A stretch of DNA of 64,000 bases from Betaproteobacteria bacterium (GTDB taxonomy: Bacteria; Pseudomonadota; Gammaproteobacteria; Burkholderiales; CAIKXV01), in contig CANGYF010000009.1 in assembly GCA_947458265.1 (NCBI GenBank), forward strand, positions 66,544 to 130,543. The letters are read 5' to 3'. The position numbers were made by a program, and so were the translations under genes. Within the stretch, counting starts at the first letter, position 1, and the number at the start of each line of letters is the position of its first letter. Positions 1-14,898 of this stretch are shown here, one piece after another. The notes beneath the pieces are model-generated. The model saw only the letters and a program-made list of their open reading frames with translations. It searched no databases and had not been told where the DNA came from.

Positions 1-950
1 ACTTCCGTATCCCAGTACTGATCGCGCTCCTGGGTGGTGGCGATGAAGTGCTCGCGCCGGTCCTCGATCCACTTCACCGGCCGGCCGCACAGGCGCGCGG
101 CGAGCGTCACGCAGATCTCCTCCGGATAGGTGACCAGCTTCGGTCCGAAGCCGCCGCCGACATCCGGCGTCGCCACGCGGATCTGGTTCTCGTGCAGGCC
201 GAGGATCTCGCAGATCACGCGCATCGCTGCATGCGGCATCTGGGTGGAGCTCCACAGCGTCGTACGGTCTTCCAGCGCATCATGGCGCGCGACGCAGCCC
301 CGGCATTCGATCGAATGGCTGCCGCCGCGGTGCTGCCAGAACGATTCGCTGAACACGTGCTTCGCCTCGGCGAACACGCGCTCGGTCTCGCCGTAGGTCA
401 TGTCGAACTCGGCAAGCAGGTTGTGCGGCGACTCGCGATGCACCAGCGGTGCATCGGCCGCGAGCGCAGCCCGGCAGTCCGACACAGCCGGCAGCGGATC
501 GAAGTCGACATCGACCAGAGTCGCCGCATCCTCGGCGATGTAGCGCGTATCGGCGAGCACGATCGCGACCGGTTCGCCGACATGGACCGCTTCGTCGGCG
601 GCAAGCACCTGCCGGTTGTGGTCCTGCTTGTAGTGCGAGCTCGGCAGGCCGACCACCAGACGGTCGGTGGCGAAATGCGGCTTGAAGTCTTCGTAGGTGT
701 AGACCGCATGCACGCCGGGCAGCGCGAGCGCAGCCGAGGCATCGATGCTGCGGATCGCCGCATGGGCATGCGGGCTGCGCACGAACGCCGCCTGCAGCAG
801 GCCGGGCATGTGGATGTCGTCGACGAAGCGGCCGCGGCCGGTGATCAGTGCATCGTCTTCCAGGCGCGGGATGCTGGCACCGATCAGGCTGTCGCCCGGG
901 CGCGAAGGATCGACGATCGGCGGCATGGCAGTCGTAGCAGTCGTGCTCAT
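1..950 (-). CDS. Molybdopterin-binding large subunit of a xanthine-dehydrogenase/CoxL-family hydroxylase (set 1). Only the N-terminal ~316 aa are present; the 3' end runs off the window.
   Basis: Absent from the ORF track because it has no stop in the window. Manual reverse translation from the ATG at 950-948 gives MSTTATTAMPPIVDPSRPGDSLIGASIPRLEDDALITGRGRFVDDIHMPG..., a typical CoxL/XdhB-family N-terminus. ATGA overlap with the stop of the upstream 2Fe-2S subunit (947). Confidence 0.85.
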   Translation of the reverse strand, partial: MSTTATTAMPPIVDPSRPGDSLIGASIPRLEDDALITGRGRFVDDIHMPGLLQAAFVRSPHAHAAIRSIDASAALALPGVHAVYTYEDFKPHFATDRLVVGLPSSHYKQDHNRQVLAADEAVHVGEPVAIVLADTRYIAEDAATLVDVDFDPLPAVSDCRAALAADAPLVHRESPHNLLAEFDMTYGETERVFAEAKHVFSESFWQHRGGSHSIECRGCVARHDALEDRTTLWSSTQMPHAAMRVICEILGLHENQIRVATPDVGGGFGPKLVTYPEEICVTLAARLCGRPVKWIEDRREHFIATTQERDQYWDTE

Positions 951-1456
951 CGCACACCTCCTGCCGCGGCCGTACCGCGCATCGTCTTCGCAGCGGCCAG
1001 CGTCGCATCGACGATCGCCTGGTAGCCGGTGCAGCGGCACAGGTTGCCCGAGATCGCAACCCGGACCTCGGCCTCGGTCGGGTCCGGGGTGTCGTTCAGC
1101 AGTTCAACCAGCGTGGTCAGCATGCCCGGCGTGCAGAAGCCGCACTGCAGGCCGTGCAGGTCCTTGAACGCCTGCTGCAGCGGATGCAGCGTGCCATCGG
1201 CGGCCGCGATGCCTTCGACTGTCGTCACCTCGCGGCCGTTAGCCTGTACCGCGAGCATCAGGCAGCCGCGGGCGGAGCGCCCGTCCACCAGTACGGTGCA
1301 GGCGCCGCACACGCCGTGTTCGCAGCCCAGGTGGGTACCGGTCAGCTCCAGCTGGTGGCGCAGGAAGTCGGCCAGCGTATGCCGGACATCCACCGTCGCC
1401 TGCACGGCGCGGCCGTTGATCTTCAGCGAGATGCTGCGGGAAAGCGTCGAGTCCAT
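947..1456 (-). CDS. (2Fe-2S)-binding small subunit of Mo-hydroxylase set 1 (CoxS-like)
   Basis: ORF 947..1516 trimmed to the internal MDSTLSRSISLKINGR start. Contains GCEHGVCGACTV and CGFCTPG...CRCTGY, the two 2Fe-2S motifs of CoxS/XdhC-type subunits. Confidence 0.9.
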   Translation of the reverse strand: MDSTLSRSISLKINGRAVQATVDVRHTLADFLRHQLELTGTHLGCEHGVCGACTVLVDGRSARGCLMLAVQANGREVTTVEGIAAADGTLHPLQQAFKDLHGLQCGFCTPGMLTTLVELLNDTPDPTEAEVRVAISGNLCRCTGYQAIVDATLAAAKTMRGTAAAGGVR

Positions 1457-1469
1457 TCGTCTGCCTTGT

Positions 1470-2342
1470 TCAGTGTCCGGCCGGGGCGATGCTGGCCAGC
1501 GCCGCATCGAGCGCACGCCGCGACATCACGACGGCCAACTGCTGCCGGTACGACGCCGGCGCATGGATGTCTTCCATCGCCTCCAGCGCGCGGCAGGCCT
1601 CGGTCACCTGCCGGAACAGTGCCGGCGAGGCAACGTGCCCTACCAGCGCCTGCTCGACCGCAGCCACTCGGACCGGGGCCGGCCCGATGCCACCCAAGGT
1701 CAGCGAGGCCCGCGTGATCGTGCCGGCCGCGTCGGTCACCAGCAGCGCGGCAGCAAGCACCACCGCATAGTCACCATGCCTGCGCGCGAACTCGACGAAG
1801 CCATGTCCGTGGCCACGGGGCCAGTCGGGCAGTTCGATGTGCGTGAGCAGCTCGTCCGGCTCGAGCGACGGCGTCATGTAGCCGGCCGGGAACTCGGCGA
1901 ACGGCATCGTCCGGGTGCCGCGCGCGCTCTGCACGGTGATCGTCGCATCCAGCGCCGCGCACACCGACGGCAATTCCGCCGCCGGGTCGAGCTGGCAGAG
2001 CGAGCCGCCGATCGTGCCGCGATTGCGCGTCTGGCGATGGCCGACCCACTGGATCGCATCGACCAGCAGGGGGCAACGCGCACGCACCACCGCGGAATGC
2101 TCCAGGTCGCGCTGGCGCGTCATCGCGCCGATGCGCAGCGCCCCCGGGCGCTCCTCGATCGTGGACAGCGCGGCGATGCGCCCGAGGTCGACCAGGTGGT
2201 CGGGCATCACGAAGCGCATGTTGAGCATCGGCATCATCGACTGCCCGCCGGCGAGCAGGCGGGCATTGTCGAGGGATGCCATCAGGCTGCAGGCTTCCTC
2301 GACGGTGCCGGGGTCATGGTAGGCGAAGGCGGGCGGTTTCAT
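1470..2342 (-). CDS. FAD-binding medium subunit of Mo-hydroxylase set 1 (CoxM-like)
   Basis: 290 aa. AGGQSMMPMLNMR and RNRGTIGGSL motifs are typical of the FAD_binding_5/CO_deh_flav_C medium subunits. Lies directly upstream of the small and large subunits. Confidence 0.88.
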   Translation of the reverse strand: MKPPAFAYHDPGTVEEACSLMASLDNARLLAGGQSMMPMLNMRFVMPDHLVDLGRIAALSTIEERPGALRIGAMTRQRDLEHSAVVRARCPLLVDAIQWVGHRQTRNRGTIGGSLCQLDPAAELPSVCAALDATITVQSARGTRTMPFAEFPAGYMTPSLEPDELLTHIELPDWPRGHGHGFVEFARRHGDYAVVLAAALLVTDAAGTITRASLTLGGIGPAPVRVAAVEQALVGHVASPALFRQVTEACRALEAMEDIHAPASYRQQLAVVMSRRALDAALASIAPAGH

Positions 2343-2379
2343 CGTGGGTGCTCGGCAGCGCGCCCCGGGGGCGCATCGT

Positions 2380-3369
2380 TCATTGCGGGTCGAGCCGGAT
2401 GTTGGCTTCGCGCGTGAGCTTGACCCAGCGCGCGAAGTCGACCTTGAGGAAGGCGGTGAACGGCTCGAGCGGGGAGAAGTTGGCTTCCGAGCCCAGCTTG
2501 GCGAGCGCTTCCCTGGCTTCGGGCTGGGCGAGCGAGGCCTCGATCTCCCGGCCGTACTGGGCGACGATCTCCTTCGGCGTGCCGGTCGGCGCGAACACGC
2601 CGGTCCACAGCGTCACTTCATAGCCGGGCACACCCGACTCGGACACGGTGGGCACCTCGGGCAGCAGCGGCGAGCGGCGCGGCGTGGTGATCGCCAGCAC
2701 GCGCAGGCGGCCGCTCTTCACGAACGGCAGCGCTGCCGGCATCGTGTTGGTGCCGGCCTGCAGCATGCCGCCGACCAGGTCGGTGGTCGCCTGCACGCTG
2801 CCCTTGTAGGGGACGTGCACCATATTCGTGCCGGTGACGGAATTGAACAGCGCCATCGACAGGTGCGAGGTCGACCCGTTGCCGGCCGACCCGTAGTTGA
2901 TGTCGCCCGGACGCTTGCGCGCGAGTTCGATCAGGTCGCGCGTGCTCTTCACCGGTAGTGCCGGATGGGTCACCAGCAGCAGCGGCACGTCGGCCACGCG
3001 CGCGATCGCGACGAAGTCCTTCAGCGGATCGAAGCTGAGCTTGCTCGCCACCGCGGGCAGCATCACGATCTCGGAGGCCGAGCCGAGCAGGATGGTGTAG
3101 CCGTCGGGCGCAGCCCGGGCGGCGAACTCGGTGCCGATCGCGCCGCCGGCGCCGGTGCGGTTCTCGACGATGATCTGCTGCTTCAACCGGTCCTGCAGCC
3201 GCTGGCTGAGGATGCGCGCGGTGGAGTCGGAACCGCCGCCCACCGGGAACGGCACCACCATGCGGATCGGCTTCGCTGGCCAGGCCTGTGCGACCGCCCC
3301 GCCCGCAGCCATCGCGCCGGCCAGCGCCACCACCCCAAGCATCGACACACGTGCGTTCGACATCTTCAT
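2380..3369 (-). CDS. Bug-family (TctC-like) tripartite tricarboxylate transporter substrate-binding protein
   Basis: 329 aa with a signal peptide, then WPAKPIRMVVPFPVGGGSDSTAR...ENRTGAGG, the characteristic Bug/TctC N-terminal signature. Confidence 0.88.
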   Translation of the reverse strand: MKMSNARVSMLGVVALAGAMAAGGAVAQAWPAKPIRMVVPFPVGGGSDSTARILSQRLQDRLKQQIIVENRTGAGGAIGTEFAARAAPDGYTILLGSASEIVMLPAVASKLSFDPLKDFVAIARVADVPLLLVTHPALPVKSTRDLIELARKRPGDINYGSAGNGSTSHLSMALFNSVTGTNMVHVPYKGSVQATTDLVGGMLQAGTNTMPAALPFVKSGRLRVLAITTPRRSPLLPEVPTVSESGVPGYEVTLWTGVFAPTGTPKEIVAQYGREIEASLAQPEAREALAKLGSEANFSPLEPFTAFLKVDFARWVKLTREANIRLDPQ

Positions 3370-3443
3370 CCTGGATCTCCGTTCAGGGCCGGGCGAATGC
3401 CCGGACAGACAGTGGATTGCGGAGCCGCCCCGCGCGGCAGGTG

Positions 3444-5819
3444 CTACGCAGGGACGGCGCCGCGCTGCTTCAGAAGGGCCTTCAGCCGCTGCGGCGTCAC
3501 CGGCAACCGCGTGATCGCATTCGGGATGCCGATCGCGTCGTCGATCGCCGCTGCGATCGCCGCACCGACGCCGGTGATGCCTGCCTCGCCAGCACCTTTC
3601 ATGCCGAGTGCGTTGTTGGGGCTGGGTGCATCCTCGGTCAGCAGCACATCGACCGGCGGCATTTCGTTGGCGGTCGGCATCAGGTAGTCGGCAAAGGTCA
3701 CCGACAGTGGCTCGCCGCGCTCGTCGTAGACGAACTCCTCGAACAGTGCGCCGCCCAGGCCCTGCGCGACGCCGCCGACGATCTGCCCTTCGACCAGCAT
3801 CGGGTTGATCGCGCAGCCGATGTCGTAGGCGACATGGAATCGCTCGACCTTCGTCTCGCCGGTATCGGGATCGACCTTCACCAGCGCGGTATGGATGCCG
3901 TACGGATGGGTCATGCCGGCGGTCTCGAACCAGCCCTCGGCGGTCAGGCCGGGATTGCCGAACTCGACCGTGGCGGGGCTGGGCGCAAGCGCTGCAGCCA
4001 CCTTGCCGATCGGGATGCCGGGCTCGCCCGGCCGGTCGATGCGCACCACCTGCCCGTCGACGATGTCGAGCATCTCGACCGGTGCCTCGACCAGGTGCCG
4101 CGACGCGAACTCGAGCGCCTTGCGCCGCACGTTCAGTGCCGCCATGCGCGTGGCGCCACCGGTCATCACCGTCGCGCGCGAGGCATGCGAACCGATGCCG
4201 TACTCGAGCACGTCGGTGCGGCCGTGGATCACCTTCACGTCGCGGTACTCGACGCCAAGCGCATCGGCGGCGATCTGCGCCATCACGGTCTCGACGCCCT
4301 GCCCGATCGAGGACGCACCCGTGATCACCTGCACCTTGCCCTTCGTGTCGACCGTGACCTTCGCGCCGTCCACCGGCCCCAGGCCGCCCTTCTCCATGAA
4401 GAAGCCCATGCCGACGCCGACCAGCTCACCCTTTGCACGCCGCGCGGCGACCTGCGCCTGCAATTCGTCCCAGCGGATGTCCACCAGCGTCTTTTCGAGC
4501 AGGCCGGCGAAATCGCCGGAGTCGAGTTCGACCGCATGGTCCAGGATCTCCATCGCCCGCGCGTAGGGGTAGGCTTCCTTCGGGATCAGGTTGCGCCGCC
4601 GGATCTCGATGCGCGACAGCCCGAACTGTTCCGCCGCCGCATCCATCAGTCGTTCGCAGGCGTAGGTGGATTCGAAGCGCCCCGGCGATCGATAGGTGGC
4701 CGCCGGCGTCTTGTTGGTCATGCGCACGTAACCGACCGTACGATAGGACGGCACATGGTAGGCGCCGATCAGCGTACCCATCGCCATGTCGGGCACGCGC
4801 GCACCGTGGGTGCGCACATAGGCACCCTGGTCGTGCCAGAGCTTCGCGTCGATCCCCAGCAACCGGCCGTCCTTGTCGAACGCGCCGCGTACCACGTGGC
4901 GCTGTTCACGCGAGTGGTTGCAGGCGAGCAGGTTCTCGCGCCGGTCCTCGACCCATTTCACGGGACGGTCGAAGCGCTGGGCCGCGAGGCAGGTCAGCAC
5001 GTCCTCCGGGTAGATCTCGCCACGCACGCCGAAGCCGCCGCCGATGTGGCCTTCATAGAAGTGCATGCTGGCCGGGCTGCGCCCGATCAGCGTCGCCACC
5101 GCATCGCGGTGCGCATGCGGCCGCTTGCCCTGGCCGTAGCACTCGAGCACGTCGCGCGAGTGGTCGATGCGCGCGAGCGCGCCGCGGTTCTCCATCGGCA
5201 CGCCGGAATGGCGACCGACCTGCACGTCGACCTCGACGACCTTGAACGCGCTGCTCAGCGCCGACTCGATGTCGCCGAAGTTCTTGCGCAGCACCAGCGC
5301 CTCGGTGGACAGGCCGGGGGCGAATTCACCCGGCGCCGTGTCGGCCGACAGGATCACCGGCAATGCCTCGCCATCCATCGTCACCAGGTCGGCGATGTCC
5401 TCGGCGACATACGGATCATCGGCGAACACCACGGCGATCGGCTCGCCCACATAGCGCACCCGGTCACGCGCGAGGATGTACTGCCGGTAGGGCTCCAGCC
5501 CCTGGATGCTGGTCGGCCGGAAGGTGATCGGCGGGATGTCGGCGACGTCGGCGCCGGTCCACACGCCACGGCAGCCCGGGTGCGCCAGCGCAGCCGAGGT
5601 GTCGATCGAGCGGATGATCGCGTTCGCATACGTCGAGCGCACCACGCGCATGTGCAGCTGGTGCGGGAAGTTCAGGTTGCCGACATAGGTGCCGCGGCCG
5701 GTGACCAGCGGCGGATCCTCGAGCCGGGTGACGCGCTGGCCGACGAACTTGCGGCGCGGGTTGACGTCGCCGTTGTGGCGCTCGCCATGCTTCAGGCTGG
5801 ACGGTCCGTGGTCGCTCAT
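3444..5819 (-). CDS. Molybdopterin-binding large subunit of Mo-hydroxylase set 2 (xanthine dehydrogenase/aldehyde oxidase/CoxL family)
   Basis: 791 aa. N-terminus GQRVTRLEDPPLVTGRGTYVGN. Active-site-loop region reads ATYRSPGRFE, not the VAYRCSFR of true CO dehydrogenase. 4-nt overlap with the upstream small subunit. Confidence 0.9.
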   Translation of the reverse strand: MSDHGPSSLKHGERHNGDVNPRRKFVGQRVTRLEDPPLVTGRGTYVGNLNFPHQLHMRVVRSTYANAIIRSIDTSAALAHPGCRGVWTGADVADIPPITFRPTSIQGLEPYRQYILARDRVRYVGEPIAVVFADDPYVAEDIADLVTMDGEALPVILSADTAPGEFAPGLSTEALVLRKNFGDIESALSSAFKVVEVDVQVGRHSGVPMENRGALARIDHSRDVLECYGQGKRPHAHRDAVATLIGRSPASMHFYEGHIGGGFGVRGEIYPEDVLTCLAAQRFDRPVKWVEDRRENLLACNHSREQRHVVRGAFDKDGRLLGIDAKLWHDQGAYVRTHGARVPDMAMGTLIGAYHVPSYRTVGYVRMTNKTPAATYRSPGRFESTYACERLMDAAAEQFGLSRIEIRRRNLIPKEAYPYARAMEILDHAVELDSGDFAGLLEKTLVDIRWDELQAQVAARRAKGELVGVGMGFFMEKGGLGPVDGAKVTVDTKGKVQVITGASSIGQGVETVMAQIAADALGVEYRDVKVIHGRTDVLEYGIGSHASRATVMTGGATRMAALNVRRKALEFASRHLVEAPVEMLDIVDGQVVRIDRPGEPGIPIGKVAAALAPSPATVEFGNPGLTAEGWFETAGMTHPYGIHTALVKVDPDTGETKVERFHVAYDIGCAINPMLVEGQIVGGVAQGLGGALFEEFVYDERGEPLSVTFADYLMPTANEMPPVDVLLTEDAPSPNNALGMKGAGEAGITGVGAAIAAAIDDAIGIPNAITRLPVTPQRLKALLKQRGAVPA

Positions 5820-6313
5820 CGCGCCCCTCCCTGGCCGGCATCGCGCACCTGGCGTACCGCGCGCAGGATGTTCTGGTAGCCGGTGCAGCGACAGAGGTTG
5901 GAGGACAGCACCTCGCGCAGCGATTCATCGTCGATGTCGGGCTGCTGTTCGAGCGTGCCTGCGGCCAGCATCAGGAAGCCGGAGGTGCAGAAGCCGCACT
6001 GCAGCGCATGGTTGTCGATGAACGCCTGCTGCAACGCATGCAGCTTGCCGCCATCCTTCGACGAGGCTGCCAGGCCCTCGACCGTGCGCAGCTCGCGGCC
6101 CTGCGCCTGCACCGCGAACATCAGGCAGGAGCGCACCGGCGCGCCGTCCATCAGGACGGTGCAGGCACCGCAGACACCGTGCTCGCAGCCCACGTTGGTG
6201 CCGGTGAGCCCGCACTCGCCGCGCAGCGCGTCAGACAGCGTCTTGCGCGGTTCGACGCGGATCTCGTGCTCGGTTCCGTTCACGTTGAGCGTGATCGCCA
6301 TCTTCGATGCCAT
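5816..6313 (-). CDS. (2Fe-2S)-binding small subunit of Mo-hydroxylase set 2
   Basis: ORF 5816..6682 trimmed to the MASKMAITLNVNG start (ATG at 6313-6311). Contains GCEHGVCGACTV and CGFCTSG...CRCTGY motifs. Confidence 0.9.
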   Translation of the reverse strand: MASKMAITLNVNGTEHEIRVEPRKTLSDALRGECGLTGTNVGCEHGVCGACTVLMDGAPVRSCLMFAVQAQGRELRTVEGLAASSKDGGKLHALQQAFIDNHALQCGFCTSGFLMLAAGTLEQQPDIDDESLREVLSSNLCRCTGYQNILRAVRQVRDAGQGGAR

Positions 6314-6317
6314 CGGA

Positions 6318-7175
6318 TCAGTCCCCTGCCTGCGCATACGCGCGCCGCACCGCCGTGCCGACCAGGTCGCGGCGATAGTCGGCGGTGGTATGGATATCCT
6401 CGAGCGGATCGACGTCCGCCGACACCGCTGCCGCTGCGGCGGCGATCGCATCCGGGCTGGCGACGCGTCCCTCGAGCAGGGCTTCGGCCACCGTGATGCG
6501 CCGTGGCTGCACCTCGACGCTGCCGGTGCCGATGCGCACCTCGCGCATCGTGCCGCCGTCGTCGCGCCACGCCACCAGCGCCATCGCCAGCGCGTAGTCG
6601 CCTGCACGCCGGCTGAATTCATAGAACCCGGCGCGGCTACCGGCGGGCAGCAGCGGCAATCGCACTTCGGCAAGCAGTTCATCTTCTTCGAGCGCGGTGG
6701 TCATGATGCCCTGGAACCATTCGGACGCTTCGATCACCCGTTCGCCGCGCACACTGCGCGCGACCATGCGCGCGCCGAGGGTTGCCGCGACCAGGCACCA
6801 CTCCGAGGCCGGATCGGCATTGGCCAAGCTGCCGCAGAAGGTGCCGCGCTGGCGTATCGGATAGTGCGCGATGTTGTGCACGACCTGCGTCAGCAGCCGT
6901 CCGAGCGGGCCGGGTTCGACCGGCGCATGGAAAGCGGCATGGCGCACGCAGGCGCCGATCACCAGGTCGCCACCTTCGACGCGCACGCGCGAGAATTCCT
7001 CGACGCCGTTGATGTCGATCAGGTGCGACGGGAAGGCCAGGCGCAGCGCCATGCTGGGCACCAGGCTCTGCCCGCCGGCGATCACCCGGCCGTCCTGCGG
7101 CGCGTACTCGGCCAGCAGCGCGACCGCTTCATCGGCGCTGCGCGCCGGGTGCCACTCGAACGACCCTGCCTTCAT
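6318..7175 (-). CDS. FAD-binding medium subunit of Mo-hydroxylase set 2
   Basis: 285 aa. AGGQSLVPSMALR and RQRGTFCGSLANADP motifs. Syntenic with the small and large subunits. Confidence 0.88.
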   Translation of the reverse strand: MKAGSFEWHPARSADEAVALLAEYAPQDGRVIAGGQSLVPSMALRLAFPSHLIDINGVEEFSRVRVEGGDLVIGACVRHAAFHAPVEPGPLGRLLTQVVHNIAHYPIRQRGTFCGSLANADPASEWCLVAATLGARMVARSVRGERVIEASEWFQGIMTTALEEDELLAEVRLPLLPAGSRAGFYEFSRRAGDYALAMALVAWRDDGGTMREVRIGTGSVEVQPRRITVAEALLEGRVASPDAIAAAAAAVSADVDPLEDIHTTADYRRDLVGTAVRRAYAQAGD

Positions 7176-7852
7176 GGTTTCTTTCCGCCGAACAGGTTGC
7201 GCAACGACGCGAGCAGTGCGCCGAACAGCAGCGAGAAGCCGGAGATCGGCTTCACCGCCTGGGTCGCTGCCGGTGCCGGCCGGGTTGCCGCTGCTGCAGC
7301 CGTATCGGCCGCCGGAGCAGGGGCGCTCGCTCCCGCAGGGGCATCGGCCGCCATCGCGGCAGCGGGCGAGGTGACGACTTGCGCCGCCGCCCTGCTCTCG
7401 AGGATGCGTGCACGCAGGCAGTCGCCGAACTGGCCGATCAGCTGCGCGGCGACGCTCTGGATCATGCCCGAGCCACGGCCATACTGGGCGACCGATCCGG
7501 TCAGCGTGACGTTGCTGTGGATGTCGACGCGGGTGCTGGATCCATCGCCGATCGGCTGCAGCGAGAAATCGATCAGCGCCGAGGTGCTGCCGCGGCCCTT
7601 GGAATCGGCACCGGTCGCACGCATGCGGGCGCGATGCGCGGCGGCATCGGTTTCCTCCAGCTTGGCCTGGCCGACGAAGGACAGCGCGACCGGACCCAGG
7701 CGTACGCCGACCTTGCCCTTGTACGTCTGCGCATCGACCACTTCGGTGAGCTCGGCGCCCGGCAGGCAGGTGGCGATGCGCTCGATGTCGAGCAGCCAGG
7801 TCCAGGCCTCGGCAGGCGGCAGCGGTACATCGAACGCGTTGTCGAATTCCAT
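7172..7852 (-). CDS. CoxG-like SRPBCC-family protein with an Ala/Pro-rich C-terminal tail
   Basis: 226 aa. MEFDNAFDVPLPPAEAWTWLLDIERIATCLPGAEL... resembles carbon monoxide dehydrogenase subunit G (COXG) family proteins. 4-nt overlap with the FAD subunit. Confidence 0.75.
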   Translation of the reverse strand: MEFDNAFDVPLPPAEAWTWLLDIERIATCLPGAELTEVVDAQTYKGKVGVRLGPVALSFVGQAKLEETDAAAHRARMRATGADSKGRGSTSALIDFSLQPIGDGSSTRVDIHSNVTLTGSVAQYGRGSGMIQSVAAQLIGQFGDCLRARILESRAAAQVVTSPAAAMAADAPAGASAPAPAADTAAAAATRPAPAATQAVKPISGFSLLFGALLASLRNLFGGKKP

Positions 7853-7910
7853 GGATGCTCGTGCGCGGCCAGCGCGCGCTGTTGGGGTTGCTCGGTGGGC
7901 GCCCGCGCGG

Positions 7911-8987
7911 TCAGCTGCCCGTGTCGGTCACCCGCCACTCGATCTGTTCACCGCCACGATAGACCAGCGCACGCCCGTCCGGACCGTCGATCTTTATCTC
8001 TTCCGGCGCGGTCCAGGTGCTGCGCTCGAGGGTGATCGTGCCAGCGTTGACCGGCAGGCCATAGTGCAGCGGCCCGTTCAGCGAGGTGAAGCCTTCCAGC
8101 TTGTCGAGTGCCCCCGCCTGTTCGAACACCTTCGTGTACTGCTCGATCGCCACCGGCGAGTTGAACAGCCCTGCCGACCCGACCACGGCCAGCTTGCGCT
8201 CGACCGGATGCGGTGCAGAGTCGGTGCCGAGGAAGAAGCACTTGTCGCCGGAGGTCGCAGCCTCGACCAGCGCGCGCCGGTCGGCTTCGGTCTTGATCAC
8301 CGGCATGCAGTAGAGGTACGGACGGTTGCCCCAGCCGAGCCAGTCGGTGCGGTTGTGCGTGAGATGGTAGGGCGTGATCGTGGCGCCGACCTGCGGCGCT
8401 GCGCTGCGGATGTAGTCGACCGCGATCTTCGAGCTGATGTGCTCGAGCACGAACTTCAGCCCCGGGAAATCCTTGGTCCAGGGCTGCAGCCGGCGCTCGA
8501 TCCAGACCGCCTCGCGGTCGAACACGTCGACCTCGGGATCGACTTCCTCGCCATGCATCAGCAGCGGGATGCCGATCTTCTCCATGCGCGCCATCACCGG
8601 CCGGATCTTCCGGTAGTCGGTGACGCCCGCCGCCGAGTTCGTGGTGGCATTGGCGGGATACAGCTTGACCGCCGTGAACACGCCATCGCGGAAGCCTGCC
8701 TCGACCTCGTCCGGATCGGTCATGTCGTGCAGGTAGCAGGTCATCATCGGCTGGAACGTCGACCCCTCGGGCAGCGCCTGGTGGATGCGCTCGCGGTAGG
8801 CGATCGCATCCTTCACCGTGGTCACCGGCGGCAACAGGTTGGGCATGATGATCGCCCGTCCGAAGTTGCGCGCGGTGAACGGCAGCGACGCCTTGAGCAT
8901 CGCGCCGTCGCGCACATGCAGGTGCCAGTCGTCCGGCTTGCGGATGGTGATGCGGTCGACGGAAGGAGCAGGAGTGTTCTGTGCCAT
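7911..8987 (-). CDS. pyrC: Dihydroorotase, homodimeric type II (E. coli PyrC-like)
   Basis: 358 aa, collinear with E. coli PyrC. Conserved motifs: DDWHLHVRD, AVKLYPANATTNS (carboxylated Lys plus substrate loop), LLMHGE, LEHIS, FLGTDSAPH. Confidence 0.9.
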   Translation of the reverse strand: MAQNTPAPSVDRITIRKPDDWHLHVRDGAMLKASLPFTARNFGRAIIMPNLLPPVTTVKDAIAYRERIHQALPEGSTFQPMMTCYLHDMTDPDEVEAGFRDGVFTAVKLYPANATTNSAAGVTDYRKIRPVMARMEKIGIPLLMHGEEVDPEVDVFDREAVWIERRLQPWTKDFPGLKFVLEHISSKIAVDYIRSAAPQVGATITPYHLTHNRTDWLGWGNRPYLYCMPVIKTEADRRALVEAATSGDKCFFLGTDSAPHPVERKLAVVGSAGLFNSPVAIEQYTKVFEQAGALDKLEGFTSLNGPLHYGLPVNAGTITLERSTWTAPEEIKIDGPDGRALVYRGGEQIEWRVTDTGS

Positions 8988-9000
8988 CGTGGCCTCGCGT

Positions 9001-9948
9001 TCAGCTGATGCCCATCATACCGGCCTCGTAGGTATCGCGCGGCGGGTGGTCGATCATCGACCCCGTGAGCTCCGACACCTTCGCCACGCCATGCGCCTCG
9101 CACCACTTCTCGATGCCATCGATCATCGCGATCATCGCCGTCGGGTTGCGGAAGCTGGCATAGCCGACCTGTACCGCACTGGCACCGGCCATCATGTACT
9201 CGATCACGTCTTCCGCGCGCGAGATGCCGCCGACGCCGATGATCGGAATCTGCACGCACTTCGAGCACTGGTGGACCATGCGCATGATGATCGGGCGCAC
9301 GCCCGGGCCGGAGATGCCGCCATAGCCGTTGCCGATGTGCGACAACCGGCTCTCGATGTTGATCTTCAACCCGAGGATGGTGTTGGACACGGTGATCGCG
9401 TTCGCACCGCCCTTCTCGGCGGCCTCCGCCACGGCGCCGATCTCGCCGGCGTTGGGTGAGAGCTTGGCCCAGATCGGCAGCTGCGTCGCCTCGCGGCAGA
9501 GCTTCACGACCTTGTAGGTGTGCTCTTCATTCAGTGCGAAGTTGCCGCCGCCGGGGGCACGCGTCGGGCACGAGATGTTGATCTCGATCGCATCGACGCC
9601 CGGCACCGACACGTCGCGCGCCATCGCCGCGAAGTCCTCGATGCTCTCGGCCGAGATCGAGCACACCAGCGGCGGCGTGAAGCGCTTGTACTCGGCGACC
9701 TGCACGTCCTGGAAGTACTTCAGCCCCTTGGTCGGCAGGCCGATGGAGTTGATCATGCCGGAGTCGATCTCCGACACCCGTGGCGGCGGGTTGCCCGCAC
9801 GATAGCCGCGCGAGACGGTCTTGGCCACCAGCGCGCCGAGGCGGTTGAGGTCGATGATCTGCGAGAACTCGACCGAGAAGGTGCCCGAGGCGGGCATCAC
9901 CGGGTTGGCCAGCTTCACGCTGCCGATGTTGACCGAGAGATCTACCAT
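9001..9948 (-). CDS. pyrD: Dihydroorotate dehydrogenase catalytic subunit, class 1B-like (PyrD B type)
   Basis: ORF 9001..10413 trimmed to the MVDLSVNIGSVKLANPVMPASG start (ATG at 9948-9946). Motifs NSIGLPTKG, EINISCPT (class-1 catalytic Cys), GGISGPGVRP and IIGVGGI match L. lactis PyrDb-type enzymes. Confidence 0.85.
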   Translation of the reverse strand: MVDLSVNIGSVKLANPVMPASGTFSVEFSQIIDLNRLGALVAKTVSRGYRAGNPPPRVSEIDSGMINSIGLPTKGLKYFQDVQVAEYKRFTPPLVCSISAESIEDFAAMARDVSVPGVDAIEINISCPTRAPGGGNFALNEEHTYKVVKLCREATQLPIWAKLSPNAGEIGAVAEAAEKGGANAITVSNTILGLKINIESRLSHIGNGYGGISGPGVRPIIMRMVHQCSKCVQIPIIGVGGISRAEDVIEYMMAGASAVQVGYASFRNPTAMIAMIDGIEKWCEAHGVAKVSELTGSMIDHPPRDTYEAGMMGIS

Positions 9949-10808
9949 CCCAGGCACTCCTGCAGGTCGAAAACGGGGCCTTCCACGCACACCCGGCGCA
10001 TCTCCTTCTGGCCGTTGCGTTCGAAGGTACGCACGCAGATGTAGCAGGGGCCCAGGCCGCAGGCCATGATCTGCTCCATCGCCATCTGGCCGGGGATGTC
10101 GAACTCGCGGCCCAGCTTCTTCATCAGCTGCATCAGCCGGTTCGAGCCGCAGGTGAAGAACGCATCGGCGCGCTTCTCGGCGATCAGCTGGCGCAGGATC
10201 TTCTCGACGTTGTCGATGTTGCTGGTGCCGTCGGTGTCGAGCACCTTCACCACGCTGCCCACGCTCTCGAACAGGTCGGCTGCCAGCGCGAGGTCGGGAC
10301 TGCGCGCCGACAGGATGGCGGTGACGCGCACCCCCTTCTCGCCAGCGAACTGCGAGATCGGCGCCATCGTCGCCAGGCCCACGCCGCGGCCAAGCACGAC
10401 GATGTTCTTCCACTCGGGCTTCAGGTGGAAGCCGACGCCCAGCGGGCCGACCATGTTCAGCTCGTCACCGGGCTTGAGCGTCGCCAGACCCTTGGTGCCG
10501 CGGCCGACGACCTTGTAGAGGAACTCGAGGCGGCCGCTGGAGCGCTGGATGCGGTACACCGACTGCGGGCGGCGGAACCACAGCTCACCCTCGTCCGGCG
10601 ACGGGCACAGCAGGTGGAAGAACTGGCCGGGCTGGGCGGCGAGCGCCTTCGGCGTGGCCTTCACCACCAGGTGCTTGTATTCCTCGTTCACCCACTCGTG
10701 CGCGACGACTGGGACGATCGATTCCTCGGCCGGGCACTGCGGCGGCGAATGGCCGGTCCCGGGTTCGCCCACCTTCACGGCGGCGGTGGCAAACATACCT
10801 TGTGACAT
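9942..10808 (-). CDS. pyrK: Dihydroorotate dehydrogenase electron-transfer subunit-like (PyrK-type FAD/NAD plus 2Fe-2S)
   Basis: ORF trimmed to MSQGMFATAAVKV (ATG at 10808, GGAGGA Shine-Dalgarno sequence upstream). C-terminus MACGLGPCYICV...RVCVEGPVF is the PyrK 2Fe-2S motif. 7-nt overlap with pyrD. Confidence 0.8.
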   Translation of the reverse strand: MSQGMFATAAVKVGEPGTGHSPPQCPAEESIVPVVAHEWVNEEYKHLVVKATPKALAAQPGQFFHLLCPSPDEGELWFRRPQSVYRIQRSSGRLEFLYKVVGRGTKGLATLKPGDELNMVGPLGVGFHLKPEWKNIVVLGRGVGLATMAPISQFAGEKGVRVTAILSARSPDLALAADLFESVGSVVKVLDTDGTSNIDNVEKILRQLIAEKRADAFFTCGSNRLMQLMKKLGREFDIPGQMAMEQIMACGLGPCYICVRTFERNGQKEMRRVCVEGPVFDLQECLGW

Positions 10809-10846
10809 CGACTGTCCTCCTGGGGCGCGGTGGGTGAACGCGTGTC

Positions 10847-10904
10847 GAAACTCGTCTCTGACCCGCATTTCTTCGAAAAGAAATTCGGGTCAGAGACGAG
10901 TTTC
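10847..10904 (-). promoter_or_regulatory. 58-nt near-perfect inverted repeat (19 bp, one mismatch, then 7 bp of stem; 4-nt loop) in the leader/promoter region of the pyrK-pyrD-pyrC operon
   Basis: Checked base by base: 10847-10865 pairs with 10886-10904, 10867-10873 pairs with 10878-10884, and the loop is CGAA. No U-tract on either strand. The centre is AT-rich in a GC-rich genome. Confidence 0.7.
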
Positions 10905-10917
10905 TCGCGGACCCCGA

Positions 10918-10946
10918 ATTAGACGAGGCGCATGTCCAAAAAGCAA
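10918..10946 (-). promoter_or_regulatory. Candidate sigma70-type promoter for the pyrK-like operon (TTGCTT-N17-TCTAAT on the minus strand)
   Basis: Hexamers read on the minus strand: -35 at 10946-10941 and -10 at 10923-10918, with 17-nt spacing. The predicted start would place the 58-nt hairpin at the 5' end of the mRNA. Confidence 0.35.
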
Positions 10947-10983
10947 GGCTTTTCCAAAAAAAGAGACGGTTCGTGACGCCCGG

Positions 10984-11865
10984 TCAGCGGTGCTTCGCGA
11001 TCAGCCCGCGCAGGAACTTCGCGGCGGCAGCCCCCTTCAGCGCCCGGCTCCACATTTCCTCGGCCGCCTTCTGGTGCAGGGCCAGGGCCTCGGGCGCGGA
11101 GGTGATCATCGCCACGCCGATGCGCACGTTCGGCTGTTCGCCCAGGCGGAACGGCGACAGCACCAGCACCTGCCGGTCCGGCTGGCGCAGGATCTGGAAG
11201 CTGGCATGCGGCAGCGTGTCGGGCACGATGCCTATCTGGATGCCGATCGGCTGCTCCTCGGTCAGCTTCGCGAAGCGCGTGACCTCTCGCACCGCCTGGG
11301 CGCGGCGCTCGGCACGGACCGCCTCGTCGAGGTCGAGGCGGCCGACCAGGCCGTTGTGCAGGAAGCGTTCGATCTCGCTCGCCGAGATCAGGTTGACCAC
11401 CGCCGGTTGGCGCCGCTGGTACTGAGCCTTGCGCGCATGCAGGATCGCCATGATCTCGCCGACCTCGGCGATCGCCCGCTCCCGGCCGGGCAGGTCGGCC
11501 GGGATGCTCTCGGTCAGCACCTCGGCGAGTGTGGCGTCGAAAGCGTCCGACGCGAGCAGGTAGGAGATCGGCCCGGCCAGCACGATGATCTGCTCGGCGG
11601 TCTCTTCGTTCTGGCGCAGCCGCTCGAAGTAGGCCACGGCCGAGGCAATGTACTCGACGCCGACGCCGAGCAGCGTCGGCACCGACACGCCGAGCAGTTC
11701 CGACAACCGGCCGAGCGTCTCGATCTTTGCCAGTTCGCCCTTCTCGAAGCGATAGAGCGCCGCGCGCGAGATCTCGAGCCGGCGCGCGATCTCGTCGGCC
11801 GACAGCCCGGAGCCGAGGCGGAAGGCACGCAGCCGGTTTCCGATGTCGTCGAATCGAATGGCCAT
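10984..11865 (-). CDS. XRE-family helix-turn-helix transcriptional regulator with a ~220-aa uncharacterised C-terminal domain
   Basis: MAIRFDDIGNRLRAFRLGSGLSADEIARRLEISRAALYRFEKGELAKIETLGRLSELLGVS is a classic HTH_XRE domain. ATG at 11865 is preferred over the GTG at 11877. Confidence 0.8.
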   Translation of the reverse strand: MAIRFDDIGNRLRAFRLGSGLSADEIARRLEISRAALYRFEKGELAKIETLGRLSELLGVSVPTLLGVGVEYIASAVAYFERLRQNEETAEQIIVLAGPISYLLASDAFDATLAEVLTESIPADLPGRERAIAEVGEIMAILHARKAQYQRRQPAVVNLISASEIERFLHNGLVGRLDLDEAVRAERRAQAVREVTRFAKLTEEQPIGIQIGIVPDTLPHASFQILRQPDRQVLVLSPFRLGEQPNVRIGVAMITSAPEALALHQKAAEEMWSRALKGAAAAKFLRGLIAKHR

Positions 11866-12158
11866 CGAGCAGAGCACTGTTGCAGGTCGCGCCGATGGTA
11901 CTCGATTGCATGCGCCGCTCCGGCAGCCTGATCGCGCATCCGCCGGTGCCGGTGAAGACGGTGAAGGTACGGGTCGCCCATGCCAGGGACAACCCGGGGC
12001 GGCCTGGTCATCGCGCTCCCCGGGAGGTGTCGAACCGGTGTCTAATTTCTGATACCGTTCTCACAAAGCAAACAGATCGATCCAGGCGTAGCACTGCGCC
12101 GCCGGGCTCGGCACGGCGCTATCCTCGGCGCTGCACCGCCACGAACGTCACGGGAGAG

Positions 12159-13598
12159 ATGTCGATGGAAAACCAGGACCTCCGGAGCTGGCTCGCACGC
12201 ATGGAAGCCGCGGGCGAACTGCAGCATGTGAGCGGCGCCGAGCGGATGGAAGAGATCGGCGGCATCGTCGACATCTACCAGCGCAAGATGGGTCGCCAGG
12301 CGCTGCTGTTCGACGACGTGCCGGGCTATCCGCGCGGCTACCGCGTGCTGGCCAACGTGCTGACCTCGGTGCGCCGCATCGCGATGACGCTCGGCCTGCC
12401 CGACGATTCCACCGAGATGGACCTGGTGCGCTACTGGCGCAACTACATCGGCGGCGCGAACACGCACAAGCCCGAGGTCGTGAAGACCGGCAAAGTGCTC
12501 GAGAACGTGCTCTACGGCAAGGACATCGACCTGCTGAAGATCCCGACGCCCAAGTGGCACGAGGACGACGGCGGCCCGTACATCGGCACCGGCTGCATGG
12601 TGATCATGAAGGATCCGGACTCGGGCTGGATCAACTACGGCGCATACCGTGGGCAGGTATTCGACAAGGCCATCGCCACCGTGATGTGCTCGAAGGGCAA
12701 GCACGGCGACCTGCTGATGCAGAAGTACTTCGCGCGCGGCGAGCGCTGCCCGATCGCGGTGGTGGTCGGCGTGCATCCGGCACTGTTCATGGTCGCCGGC
12801 CTGGAGATCCCGTACGGCAAGAACGAGTACGAGGCAGCCGGAGCGCTGATCGGTGAACCGGTGCAGGTGATCGAGGGCCCGATCACCGGGTTGCCGATCC
12901 CGGCACATGCCGAGATCGCCTACGAAGGCTTCGTGTCGCCGGATGACCGGATCGACGAAGGCCCGCTCGGCGAATGGACCGGCTACTACTGCAGCGGCAA
13001 GTCGCCGCAGCCGGTGATCCGGGTCGAGTCGATGCTGCATCGAAACGACCCGGTGCTGCTGGGCGTGGTGCCGGCGGTACCGCCGAACGACGACAGCTAC
13101 TACCGCGGCCACTTCCGCGCAGGGGCGGTGTGGCGCCAGCTCGAGGGCGCCGGCATCCCCGGGGTCACCGGGGTCTGGTCGCACGAGGCCGGCGGCGGAC
13201 GCTACTGGCTCACGGTGGCGGTGAAGCAGATGTATCCCGGCCACTCGAAGCAGGTCGGGCTGGTCGCAGGCCAGGTGCATGCCGCCGCCTACTGCAACCG
13301 CTACGTGGTCGTGGTGGACGACGACATCAACCCGGCCAACATGGACGAGGTGGTCTGGGCGATGTGCACCCGGGTCGACCCGCGCGAGGACGTCGAGATC
13401 CTGAAGGGCTGCTGGAGCACGCGCCTGGACCCGATGTCCTATCCGGCGGAAGAGCCGGTGCTCAACTCGCGCATGGTCATCGATGCCTGCCGGCCGTGGA
13501 TCAAGCGCGCGACCTTCCCGGCGGTGGCACGCTCCAGCCCGGGGCTGGACGCACGCATCCGCGAGAAGTTCGGCGACGTGCTGCCCAAGGGGTTCTGA
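12159..13598 (+). CDS. UbiD-family (prFMN-dependent) aromatic/heteroaromatic acid decarboxylase
   Basis: ORF 11727..13598 trimmed to MSMENQDLRSWL (ATG at 12159, GGGAGA Shine-Dalgarno sequence). 479 aa. Shows UbiD hallmarks: LLFDDVPGYP, GGPYIGTG and EGPLGEWTGYY (the E-x-P-x-G-E-x-x-G-Y motif). Confidence 0.85.
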   Translation: MSMENQDLRSWLARMEAAGELQHVSGAERMEEIGGIVDIYQRKMGRQALLFDDVPGYPRGYRVLANVLTSVRRIAMTLGLPDDSTEMDLVRYWRNYIGGANTHKPEVVKTGKVLENVLYGKDIDLLKIPTPKWHEDDGGPYIGTGCMVIMKDPDSGWINYGAYRGQVFDKAIATVMCSKGKHGDLLMQKYFARGERCPIAVVVGVHPALFMVAGLEIPYGKNEYEAAGALIGEPVQVIEGPITGLPIPAHAEIAYEGFVSPDDRIDEGPLGEWTGYYCSGKSPQPVIRVESMLHRNDPVLLGVVPAVPPNDDSYYRGHFRAGAVWRQLEGAGIPGVTGVWSHEAGGGRYWLTVAVKQMYPGHSKQVGLVAGQVHAAAYCNRYVVVVDDDINPANMDEVVWAMCTRVDPREDVEILKGCWSTRLDPMSYPAEEPVLNSRMVIDACRPWIKRATFPAVARSSPGLDARIREKFGDVLPKGF

Positions 13599-13608
13599 CG
13601 GTCGAACG

Positions 13609-14856
13609 ATGCAAACCATGAGCCGATCCTCCCGGGCCACTGCCCCGCTGTCCCGGCCGGCGCTGCTCGTGCTGGCATTGCTGCTGTCGGCTGCGCCGGC
13701 GTCCGCCAACGAATGGCTGTCCTGCGTGAAGGAGCTGCGCACGATCGCCACCAGCAAAGGGGTGAGCGCGCAGGTGTTCGACACCGCCTTCGCCGGCGTC
13801 GAGCCGGACGCGGACATCCTGAAGGCGTTCGACAACCAGCCAGAGTTCACCATCCCGATCTGGGACTACCTCTCGGGGCTGGTCGACGACGAGCGCGTGG
13901 CCGACGGGCGCGCGCTGATGGAGAAATGGGCGGCGGTGCTGGCCCAGGCGGAAGAGAAGTTCGGCGTCGACCGGTTCGTGATCGCCGCCGTCTGGGGCGT
14001 GGAGTCCGACTACGGTCGCATCATGGGCAAGCGCGAACTCGTGCGTTCGCTGGCGACGCTCTCGTGCTCGAGCCGGCGCCAGGCATTCTTCCGGGGCGAG
14101 CTGCTGGCGACGTTGCGCATCCTGCAGAGCGGCGACATCCCCGCAGAGGCGCTGGTCGGCTCCTGGGCGGGCGCGTTCGGGCAGACGCAGTTCATGCCGT
14201 CGACCTACCAGCGGCTGGCGATCGATTTCGACGGCGACGGCCGGCGCGACATCGTCGCCTCGGTGCCCGACGCACTGGGCTCGACCGCGAACTACCTGAA
14301 GCGTGCCGGCTGGATCACCGGACAGCCCTGGGGCTACGAAGTGCGCCTGCCGGCGAACTACGGTGGCCCCTCCGGGCGCCGCACGAAACAGTCGATCGCC
14401 CAGTGGAACGAGCTGGGCATCCGCCAGGTCGATGGCAGCCCGCTCGCCGGCAACGGCCCGGCCGGCCTGCTGCTGCCCTCGGGCGCGAAGGGTCCGGCGT
14501 TCATCGTGTTGCGCAACTTCGATGCGATCTTCGCCTACAACGCAGCGGAATCGTATGCGCTGGCGATCGCCCATCTGGCCGACCGGCTGCGCGGCGCGGG
14601 CACCTTCCAGACGCCCTGGCCGACCGACGATCCCGGCATCGGCCGCGCGCAGCGGCGCGAGGTGCAGCAGCGACTGCTCGACCGGGGCTTCGACGTGGGC
14701 ACGCCAGACGGCATCGTCGGCGCGCGCACGCGAACCGCCATCCGCGCGTTCCAGGCCTCGGCCGGGCTCGCCCAGGACGGACGCGCCGGCCTGCGGGTGC
14801 TGCAGGCGCTGCGCACGTCGACGCCGAATCCACCGATGGCACCAGCGCAGAAATAG
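13609..14856 (+). CDS. Lytic murein transglycosylase (MltB/Slt family 3) with a C-terminal peptidoglycan-binding domain
   Basis: Signal peptide, then AVWGVESDYG and GAFGQTQFMPSTY...DFDGDGRRDI motifs of MltB-like enzymes. C-terminus VQQRLLDRGFDVGTPDGIVGARTRTAIRAFQ is PG_binding_1-like. Confidence 0.85.
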   Translation: MQTMSRSSRATAPLSRPALLVLALLLSAAPASANEWLSCVKELRTIATSKGVSAQVFDTAFAGVEPDADILKAFDNQPEFTIPIWDYLSGLVDDERVADGRALMEKWAAVLAQAEEKFGVDRFVIAAVWGVESDYGRIMGKRELVRSLATLSCSSRRQAFFRGELLATLRILQSGDIPAEALVGSWAGAFGQTQFMPSTYQRLAIDFDGDGRRDIVASVPDALGSTANYLKRAGWITGQPWGYEVRLPANYGGPSGRRTKQSIAQWNELGIRQVDGSPLAGNGPAGLLLPSGAKGPAFIVLRNFDAIFAYNAAESYALAIAHLADRLRGAGTFQTPWPTDDPGIGRAQRREVQQRLLDRGFDVGTPDGIVGARTRTAIRAFQASAGLAQDGRAGLRVLQALRTSTPNPPMAPAQK

Positions 14857-14898
14857 GCGTACGTTGGGTGCCATGACAGGCTCGCCCGCAGACTACCG

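Follow-up and report, generated by a model that had tools for sequence, protein, structure and literature searches.

Positions 1-13598 of the window (by which we mean the whole 64,000-nt stretch analysed, from contig CANGYF010000009.1 of a Betaproteobacteria bacterium) carry a conserved gene cluster that very probably serves the catabolism of an N-heterocyclic carboxylic acid. The window has a G+C content of ~69%. Family searches with Pfam and NCBIfam gave a single coherent reading of positions 1-13598: a run of minus-strand genes in the order pyrK-pyrD-pyrC-coxG-coxMSL-bug-coxMS-coxL'. An XRE-family regulator gene lies upstream of the run, and a gene for a UbiD-family decarboxylase, 293 nt from the regulator gene, is transcribed divergently from it. 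On balance we favour a stepwise scheme in which the substrate is an orotate analogue and the core enzymes derive from a diverged module of ‘pyrimidine synthesis run backwards’; we infer all steps of the scheme from family assignments, conserved linkage and comparison with a sister module of cultured bacteria. A more specific version, a pyridine-4-carboxylate or dicarboxylate route via citrazinate to tricarballylate and aconitate in uncultured soil Alpha- and Betaproteobacteria, is offered as a tentative suggestion.

The genes from pyrK to the window edge are co-directional and closely packed, as the initial annotation of this DNA had described. The spacing between successive genes from pyrK to coxL2 is −7, 13, 58, −4, 4, −4, 74, 37, 13 and −4 nt, with 4-nt overlaps at the coxG/coxM1, coxS1/coxL1 and coxS2/coxL2 junctions. 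A scan of the minus strand detected no terminator-like site within the pyrK-coxL2 run; the only one on this strand follows the regulator gene. The junctions listed earlier as 7852/7911, 3369/3444 and 2342/2380 proved exact, and every family named for genes of positions 1-13598 was borne out by Pfam and NCBIfam at its coordinates. The operon is cut by the window edge, the remainder being held by the same 720-kb metagenome scaffold (locus L001). Beyond the edge this source contig encodes CoxL2 in full length (797 aa), one more Bug protein, whose gene overlaps coxL2 by 4 nt, and a member of the chromate-transporter family.

The neighbourhood is conserved well beyond this genome. Species-representative genomes were scanned with a profile of close PyrD relatives; the 80 nearest loci, all from metagenome-assembled genomes (MAGs), belong to Burkholderiales/Betaproteobacteria (75-98% PyrD identity) and to Alphaproteobacteria, including Xanthobacteraceae, Stellaceae and Micropepsaceae (62-72%). 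Co-occurrence was defined by tblastn matches of window proteins within 10 kb or less, and the resulting counts are lower bounds, many contigs being short. PyrK was found in 79 of the 80 loci, PyrC in 64, at least one Cox subunit in 59 and CoxG in 44; the XRE regulator and an orthologous UbiD (60-97% identity) were each found in 28. Linkage is kept through several gene orders in the two proteobacterial classes. For instance, UbiD is embedded in a coxM1-ubiD-coxS1-coxL1 operon in L029, L032, L038, L040, L041 and L054, and in several alphaproteobacterial loci this operon is divergent from coxM2/S2(-L2)-XRE-pyrK-pyrD-pyrC. The conservation analysis suggested by the initial annotation thus gave a positive answer, across two classes and in rearranged orders, with a shared operator motif linking the operons.

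Alphaproteobacterial loci have further genes tightly packed after pyrC: a gene for orotate phosphoribosyltransferase (OPRT, PyrE; 43/80 loci; NF001729, 401 bits against a cut-off of 245), one for a TcuA-like flavoprotein (44/80; NF006130, 588 bits against 369) and one for an amidase-signature amidase (35/80), followed by coxG. In soil metagenomes the family is represented by hundreds of clusters at 90% identity, some with hundreds to >1000 member sequences.

Several other genes were observed around the clusters. In L050 (7572-9212) and ~25 similar alphaproteobacterial loci, two conserved genes (251 and 286 aa) with no Pfam or NCBIfam match, along with a BD-FAE/alpha-beta hydrolase gene, are located divergently upstream of pyrK. 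In this subgroup the XRE regulator and UbiD are not found within 10 kb, and the 251- and 286-aa proteins may be an alternative regulator or transporter. Genes of the PuuE-type polysaccharide-deacetylase fold and of the arylmalonate-decarboxylase/Asp-Glu-racemase family occur near some clusters (L040, 14297-15175 and 17659-18414; L082, 3847-6065); HxnM and other cyclic imidases belong to the PuuE-type family. Variovorax RA8 has a deacetylase-fold gene and an amidase gene (its product 47.5% identical to the cluster amidase) 6 kb from a simple module of the type described below.

The regulator gene (10984..11865, minus strand) encodes an N-terminal helix-turn-helix domain (HTH_31, HTH_3) followed by ~200 aa without a Pfam match. 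The earlier description of a dedicated regulator ‘next door’ holds as to adjacency but needs a correction as to position: the gene sits upstream of the pyrK operon, on the operon strand. Its product is 40-55% identical to regulators of simple pyrKD-carbamoylase-pyrC modules. Directly 3′ of the gene is a terminator-like hairpin with a T-run (10964..10981, minus strand). A 38-nt motif upstream of pyrK is common to 42 loci; its consensus, CTGTTCAAAAATTGGAAAAAATCTTGATTTTGGGACAG, holds a −35-like TTGA/CTT element. The window copy, a predicted promoter/operator of the pyrK operon (10932..10969, minus strand), scores 40.5 bits on the position weight matrix (PWM) built from the 42 loci and is the only site of at least 8 bits in the 64-kb window. 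Eight alphaproteobacterial loci (L032, L040, L041, L054, L060, L063, L069 and L070) have weaker copies in divergent promoter regions (coxM1 / coxM2, coxS2 or ubiD); further copies were detected 5′ of coxM1 in L013 and 5′ of a Bug gene in L074. A motif common to pyrK and cox/ubiD promoters is sequence-level evidence for one regulon, and its detection at pyrK alone in the window fits a single long operon.

The pyrK-like gene (9942..10808, minus strand) encodes a FAD/[2Fe-2S] electron-transfer subunit with the DHODB_Fe-S_bind and FAD_binding_6 domains and a C-terminal Cys motif, CGLGPCYIC...VC. The product is below all NCBIfam PyrK cut-offs (best 130.5 bits against 220), with the FAD and Fe-S domains present. 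The gene overlaps by 7 nt the pyrD-like gene (9001..9948, minus strand), which encodes an FMN subunit of the class 1B dihydroorotate dehydrogenase (DHOD) fold. This PyrD exceeds the NF005574 cut-off (319.7 bits against 269), passes TIGR01037 narrowly (270.7 against 270) and matches Lactococcus lactis DHODB (1EP1) with 216 bits. The catalytic Cys127 is retained, along with Lys43, Asn67, Asn124 and Asn189. In the motif N-I-S-C-P-T, Thr129 replaces the canonical Asn, as it does in 80/80 loci of the clade; window-clade PyrD has thus lost one of four orotate-binding Asn residues and lacks the full class 1B residue set. In a solved DHOD-orotate complex the Asn equivalent to Thr129 forms a hydrogen bond with the orotate carboxylate, and N1/O2 of orotate are held by the Asn equivalent to Asn67 (PMC12481576). 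We had considered the Asn-to-Thr replacement as a change of the N1 contact, which would point to a deaza substrate; this interpretation was dropped, since the replaced Asn is the carboxylate contact and N1 is on the conserved Asn67. Another position reads G-Y/F in 56/80 window-clade loci, its counterpart in L. lactis DHODB and in the sister clade being G-T; the other 24/80 do not match the pattern.

The pyrC-like gene (7911..8987, minus strand) encodes a cyclic amidohydrolase of the type II dihydroorotase (DHOase) fold (TIGR00856, 404 bits against 293; 384 bits to DHOase 4LFY). Its HxH, KLYP, HGE, EH and DSAPH motifs and Arg/Asn/His positions are those of 4LFY; we take them to be the metal ligands and the carboxylate-binding Arg, Asn and His of the E. 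coli enzyme. At other conserved sites the window clade reads EH(I/L/V)SS, C-M-P and xGxAG/xGxPG, where 4LFY and the sister clade read EHITT, C-L-P and CGCAG, motifs that presumably line the ring pocket of E. coli DHOase and bind the ureide part.

Cultured bacteria have a simpler, related module, the sister module. A tblastn search identified PyrD homologues at 46-54% identity in 87 plasmid or chromid records, and the module occurs in Klebsiella, Pseudomonas, Variovorax, Nitratireductor, Agrobacterium, Burkholderia and Cupriavidus (e.g. K. pneumoniae IncFIB lac plasmid NZ_CP050823, Pseudomonas putida NZ_MN310372, Variovorax sp. RA8 NZ_LR594663 and Nitratireductor sp. OM-1 NZ_CP029209). The gene order is transporter (major facilitator superfamily, MFS, or TRAP)-pyrK-pyrD-‘Zn-dependent hydrolase’-(pyrC)-XRE, often with a PyrE-like gene or pyrF and a gene for a 108-aa hypothetical protein. 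The Zn-dependent hydrolase belongs to the M20 carbamoylase family (TIGR01879, 277 bits against 204). PyrK (42-47%), PyrD (46-54%), PyrC (50-51%) and the XRE regulator (40-55%) are homologous to those of the window clade. In contrast to the window clade, the sister module has no Mo-hydroxylases, CoxG, UbiD or TcuA, and its PyrD and PyrC motifs are canonical. When the 80 window-clade loci were compared with seven sister loci, the PyrD motif was N-x-S-C-P-T in 80/80 versus N-x-S-C-P-N in 7/7; a carbamoylase was present in 0/80 versus 7/7, TcuA in 44/80 versus 0/7 and CoxL in 51/80 versus 0/7. So PyrD and PyrC have diverged jointly at conserved pocket positions, with exchange of the downstream enzyme. 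The probable function of the sister module itself is to take up orotate, reduce it to dihydroorotate, open the ring to N-carbamoyl-aspartate and convert this to aspartate by decarbamoylation; the classical orotate fermentation of Clostridium oroticum is a precedent. No published description of the sister module was found in the literature searched.

A compact form of the sister module, MFS-pyrK-pyrD-carbamoylase-pyrC-XRE-hyp108, is located beside lacY/lacZ on K. pneumoniae NZ_CP050823 (L084, 7533-14770), one of the IncFIB plasmids from milk. The same compact form was seen in L082, L083 and L085-L088, and 53 Klebsiella plasmid records were matched. It seems to be an aerobic module for the utilisation of orotate, apparently undescribed; orotate is abundant in cow's milk.

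Two molybdenum hydroxylases are encoded by the cox genes, all on the minus strand, and in both sets the three-subunit CoxLMS architecture of the xanthine dehydrogenase (XDH) family is complete by domain search. The first set comprises coxM1 (6318..7175; FAD-binding medium subunit, FAD_binding_5 and CO_deh_flav_C), coxS1 (5816..6313; [2Fe-2S] small subunit, Fer2 and Fer2_2) and coxL1 (3444..5819; large Mo-cofactor subunit with three XDH-family domains). It is preceded by coxG (7172..7852), the gene for an SRPBCC accessory protein (PF06240 COXG). The second set comprises coxM2 (1470..2342; FAD_binding_5 and CO_deh_flav_C, the FAD-binding medium subunit), coxS2 (947..1456; the [2Fe-2S] small subunit with Fer2 and Fer2_2, overlapping the coxL2 start by 4 nt) and the 5′ part of coxL2 (1..950; 316 codons of the large Mo-cofactor subunit). 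The full CoxL2 in L001 has Ald_Xan_dh_C, MoCoBD_1 and MoCoBD_2 domains. CoxL1 and CoxL2 are two different enzymes, since their identity is just 35%. The nearest solved structures to CoxL1 are 6-hydroxypseudooxynicotine dehydrogenase (7DQX, 605 bits) and quinoline 2-oxidoreductase (1T3Q). The top solved match of CoxL2 is 8UEM, deposited as CO dehydrogenase CoxL (475 bits), with 6-hydroxypseudooxynicotine dehydrogenase and quinoline 2-oxidoreductase as runners-up at 466 and 445 bits.

We considered CO dehydrogenase (CODH) as a function of the cluster and rejected it. Aerobic CODH has the same three-subunit build and a CoxG accessory gene, but also an AYxCSFR copper-binding loop that is absent from both large subunits of the cluster: the signature position reads ATYRSPGR in CoxL1 and TPVRGAGH in CoxL2. 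Scores are under the CODH equivalog cut-offs (405 bits against 991 for the form I family TIGR02416).

The UbiD gene (12159..13598, plus strand) encodes a decarboxylase dependent on prenylated flavin mononucleotide (prFMN), with UbiD_N, UbiD and UbiD_C domains (TIGR00148, 280 bits against 245) and an ExxxxE acid/base motif at residues 267-272 (E267-x4-E272). The nearest solved structure is that of phenazine-1-carboxylate decarboxylase PhdA (7PDA, 364 bits), which acts on an N-heteroaromatic acid. The gene bug1 (2380..3369, minus strand) encodes a TctC/Bug periplasmic carboxylate-binding protein (PF03401 TctC, 229 bits). In L002 (4445-8000), L004, L005 and L013 a second UbiD paralogue (~40% identical) and two Bug genes are located between ubiD and XRE; this insertion of close relatives is not in the window. 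Two Burkholderiales loci, L013 (16017-19958) and L011 (10358-14380), have genes of an ABC importer (solute-binding protein, TOBE-domain ATPase and permease) between coxL1 and coxM1, which suggests an uptake route alternative to Bug proteins.

These assignments agree with the logic of hydroxylation, reduction, hydrolysis and decarboxylation put forward in the initial annotation: the families are as named, neither CoxL has the CODH signature, and CoxL and UbiD have relatives that act on N-heterocycles. In the scheme that we favour, Bug/TctC proteins would bind the acid for uptake, with the membrane components of the transporter encoded elsewhere, and UbiD would remove one ring carboxylate. The two CoxLMS hydroxylases, with CoxG, would oxygenate both ring carbons adjoining the nitrogen to give an orotate-like 2,6-dioxo-heterocycle-4-carboxylate. 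PyrK/PyrD would then reduce the C=C bond of the dioxo-heterocycle with NADH, and the PyrC-like amidohydrolase would open the cyclic imide or ureide. In alphaproteobacterial versions the amidase and the TcuA-like flavoprotein, encoded directly after pyrC, would complete the breakdown; in the window lineage these genes may be elsewhere or replaced. The XRE regulator would control the pyrK operon via the conserved 38-nt operator.

As to the substrate, orotate and pyridine carboxylates had been guessed earlier; comparison with the sister module argues for an analogue of orotate and against orotate itself. Our candidates would be isonicotinate or a pyridinedicarboxylate (PDCA) such as 2,4- or 3,4-PDCA, such dicarboxylates being admitted by a UbiD step. 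Breakdown could then run through citrazinate and tricarballylate monoamide to tricarballylate and aconitate. Citrazinate (2,6-dihydroxypyridine-4-carboxylate) is 1-deaza-orotate. It is favoured because it would keep the chemistry of both enzymes: for DHOD, an enone whose hydride-accepting carbon bears the carboxylate; for DHOase, an imide with its C-N bond in the beta position to the same carbon. Tricarballylate as the ring-opened, deamidated product would explain an amidase and a TcuA homologue in place of a carbamoylase, an exchange that fits carbon in the place of N1. Two other dihydroxypyridine carboxylates were rejected: 4,6-dihydroxypicolinate (3-deaza-orotate, possible from dipicolinate) has no amide bond where DHOase cleaves, and 2,6-dihydroxynicotinate has its carboxylate on the wrong carbon for DHOD geometry. 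Citrazinate is also a recognised orotate mimic and an inhibitor of OPRT (PMC5472421). The conserved PyrE may signify real orotate, inherited baggage or a counter-measure to an OPRT inhibitor.

Parts of the scheme have parallels in known pathways. Isonicotinate catabolism in Mycobacterium sp. INA1 starts with two successive Mo-hydroxylations to a 2,6-dihydroxy product (PMC4548258). In INA1, as proposed for the cluster, two separate molybdenum hydroxylases lead to a 2,6-dihydroxy ring acid; unlike the cluster, the INA1 pathway has no described UbiD step. The literature searched gave no gene sequences for the isonicotinate and 2-hydroxyisonicotinate dehydrogenases of INA1. To our knowledge, no sequences of genes of this pathway have been published. 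The product in INA1 was reportedly identified as citrazinate (Kretzer, Frunzke and Andreesen, 1993), with the ring then reduced and opened at C-N to a propane-tricarboxylate derivative; activation with coenzyme A (CoA) is said to precede the reduction, which would act on CoA esters.

The nicotinate pathways of Eubacterium barkeri and of Aspergillus nidulans (hxn) follow the same logic of Mo-hydroxylation, saturation, C-N hydrolysis and deamidation, and for the pyridine ring the succession of ring saturation, cyclic imidase and amidase is proven in Aspergillus (PMC9304392). The Aspergillus pathway opens the ring with the PuuE-type cyclic imidase HxnM and not with a DHOase homologue. Neither nicotinate pathway has DHOD-B, DHOase homologues or UbiD, all present in the cluster. 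For ring opening, nicotinate fermentation by E. barkeri uses an enamidase. Reductive pyrimidine catabolism (PreTA/DPD, dihydropyrimidinase, beta-ureidopropionase) likewise combines a C5=C6 reduction by the DHOD fold, a cyclic amidohydrolase and a carbamoylase or amidase. However, the window PyrD scores 140 bits with PreA, for which the cut-off is 335, and keeps the carboxylate-binding Lys and backbone site; the dihydropyrimidinase of that pathway is of hydantoinase type, whereas the cluster PyrC is a type II DHOase.

Several observations weigh against the favoured scheme or its citrazinate version. No UbiX homologue was detected by tblastn in the window or any of 90 loci with an E. coli UbiX query; a UbiX gene is expected elsewhere in the genome. 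TcuA, amidase and PyrE homologues are absent from the whole 64-kb window by tblastn, and the PWM scan detected no operator copy before the window ubiD. The clustered OPRT gene argues for genuine orotate in the pathway. Judged from residue identities, the Asn-to-Thr change of PyrD shows altered binding and not a deaza substrate. No CoA ligase is encoded in the conserved block of the cluster, in contrast to the INA1 pathway with its reported CoA esters. No cultured host was found among the 80 closest genomes and in sequence-cluster searches, all sources being metagenomes or MAGs.

The TcuA-like protein deserves the same caution. ‘TcuA’ genes whose products are 62-65% identical to that of the cluster were observed in cultured bacteria, on a Bradyrhizobium plasmid (L089) and Paracoccus versutus pTAV3 (L090). 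Their neighbours are genes for electron-transfer flavoprotein (ETF) subunits or phosphosulfolactate synthase and ABC transporters of NrtA/SsuA type; TcuB is absent. These cultured homologues with ETF or sulfonate-type transporters and without TcuB make the tricarballylate assignment weak, and we have downgraded TcuA from proof of tricarballylate to weak evidence. In the one clade operon examined for it (L050), no TcuB-like gene is annotated beside TcuA, TcuB never having been a search query. The NCBIfam equivalog name TcuA is probably too specific for this branch, whose enzyme might oxidise 2-substituted succinates in general, N-carbamoyl-aspartate among them.

That last option belongs to an alternative, which we consider rather unlikely, in which orotate itself is central: a pyrimidine carboxylate would be decarboxylated and hydroxylated to orotate, reduced and opened to N-carbamoyl-aspartate, with the amidase and/or the TcuA-like enzyme replacing the carbamoylase and PyrE salvaging part of the orotate. 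PyrD and PyrC do score above the cut-offs of the respective NCBIfam equivalogs, DHOD and DHOase. PyrD keeps its Cys, Lys43, Asn67, Asn124 and Asn189, the presumed ligand residues of PyrC are those of 4LFY, the OPRT equivalog occurs in 43/80 loci, and orotate is almost certainly the substrate of the homologous sister module. Yet the carbamoylase of all seven sister modules is missing from all 80 loci, and the clade has an invariant change at one of four orotate-binding Asn residues together with its own PyrC motifs, while the sister clade is canonical; we also know of no natural compound that would give orotate by two hydroxylations and a decarboxylation.

Still less probable, in our estimate, is a reading of the Cox enzymes as aldehyde or other dehydrogenases acting on another compound class, with PyrDK/PyrC working on an unrelated cyclic imide or enoate. 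In NCBIfam, CoxM1 and CoxS1 best match subunits of glyceraldehyde dehydrogenase, a family with which CoxL1 scores 539 bits, all below cut-offs; substrate specificity in the Cox family is not readable from sequence, and the unrelated contexts of the cultured TcuA homologues are compatible with such a reading. Against it, the solved structures nearest to CoxL1 are N-heterocycle hydroxylases, which also come close behind the top match of CoxL2, the linked UbiD has its nearest solved relative in an enzyme for an N-heteroaromatic acid, and PyrD and PyrC retain carboxylate- and ring-binding residues of the orotate and dihydroorotate enzymes. Chance adjacency, with pyrK-pyrD-pyrC as an alternative NAD-linked set for pyrimidine biosynthesis beside unrelated molybdoenzyme genes, is strongly disfavoured and very improbable. 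PyrD and PyrC are indeed of the families of the biosynthetic enzymes, but the linkage survives multiple rearrangements in two classes, the operons have a common operator motif, the dedicated regulator is homologous to those of transporter-linked, carbamoylase-containing modules, and 4-nt overlaps join coxG to coxM1, coxS1 to coxL1 and coxS2 to coxL2.

The word ‘island’ in the initial annotation, if taken to mean recently acquired DNA, finds no support in composition, tRNA genes or mobile elements, and horizontal acquisition was rejected: G+C content is even with the flanks, no tRNA gene lies within 30 kb, and no mobile-element evidence was found. The MltB flank is the same in the close relatives L002 and L005, which counts against recent acquisition. 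Past UbiD, window positions 13483-19250 are ordinary chromosome, with genes for a lytic transglycosylase (SLT_2), DUF2721 and an NMT1-type binding protein, another Bug gene, ssb, an MFS transporter gene and uvrA. G+C content rises to 72-76% at ~32-44 kb of the window, with a strong positive AT skew, and falls to 62-65% from 48 kb to the end; both shifts are unrelated to the cluster.

The predicted 5′ leader of pyrK contains, after the putative −10 element and ahead of the start codon, a near-perfect hairpin of 58 nt (10847..10904, minus strand) with 27-nt arms that are 96% complementary; the folding energy computed for the leader is −59.6 kcal/mol (z = −5.7). As a conserved regulatory RNA or repeat the hairpin was rejected: it is unique in the window, has no Rfam match and is absent from L002, the closest relative (97-98% identical). 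It may be a recent insertion or duplication.

The initial annotation did not recognise the gene combination as a described pathway, and we likewise found no description in the literature searched; full-text searches (orotate, isonicotinate, citrazinate, PDCA, UbiD, tricarballylate) returned none, with most subscription journals outside their coverage. Every enzyme family and the hydroxylate-reduce-hydrolyse logic is known already. What appears to be new is the combination of genes, the recruitment of diverged DHOD-B/DHOase copies and their link to a UbiD decarboxylase and a defined operator.

If confirmed, the cluster would be a case of anabolic enzymes recruited into catabolism by changes of a few substrate-contact residues; the unaltered intermediate, probably a module for orotate catabolism, still circulates on plasmids in cultured hosts, Klebsiella among them. 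The cluster would also provide genes for the hydroxylate-saturate-hydrolyse mode of N-heterocycle degradation, the bacterial genetics of which is largely unknown. The enzymes (a prFMN decarboxylase, two Mo-hydroxylases and an NADH-linked ene-reductase acting on dioxo-heterocycles) could serve in making or removing pyridine carboxylates. Abundance in soil metagenomes, with no cultured host among the 80 closest genomes, marks the cluster as the sign of an unrecognised flux of carbon and nitrogen in soil.

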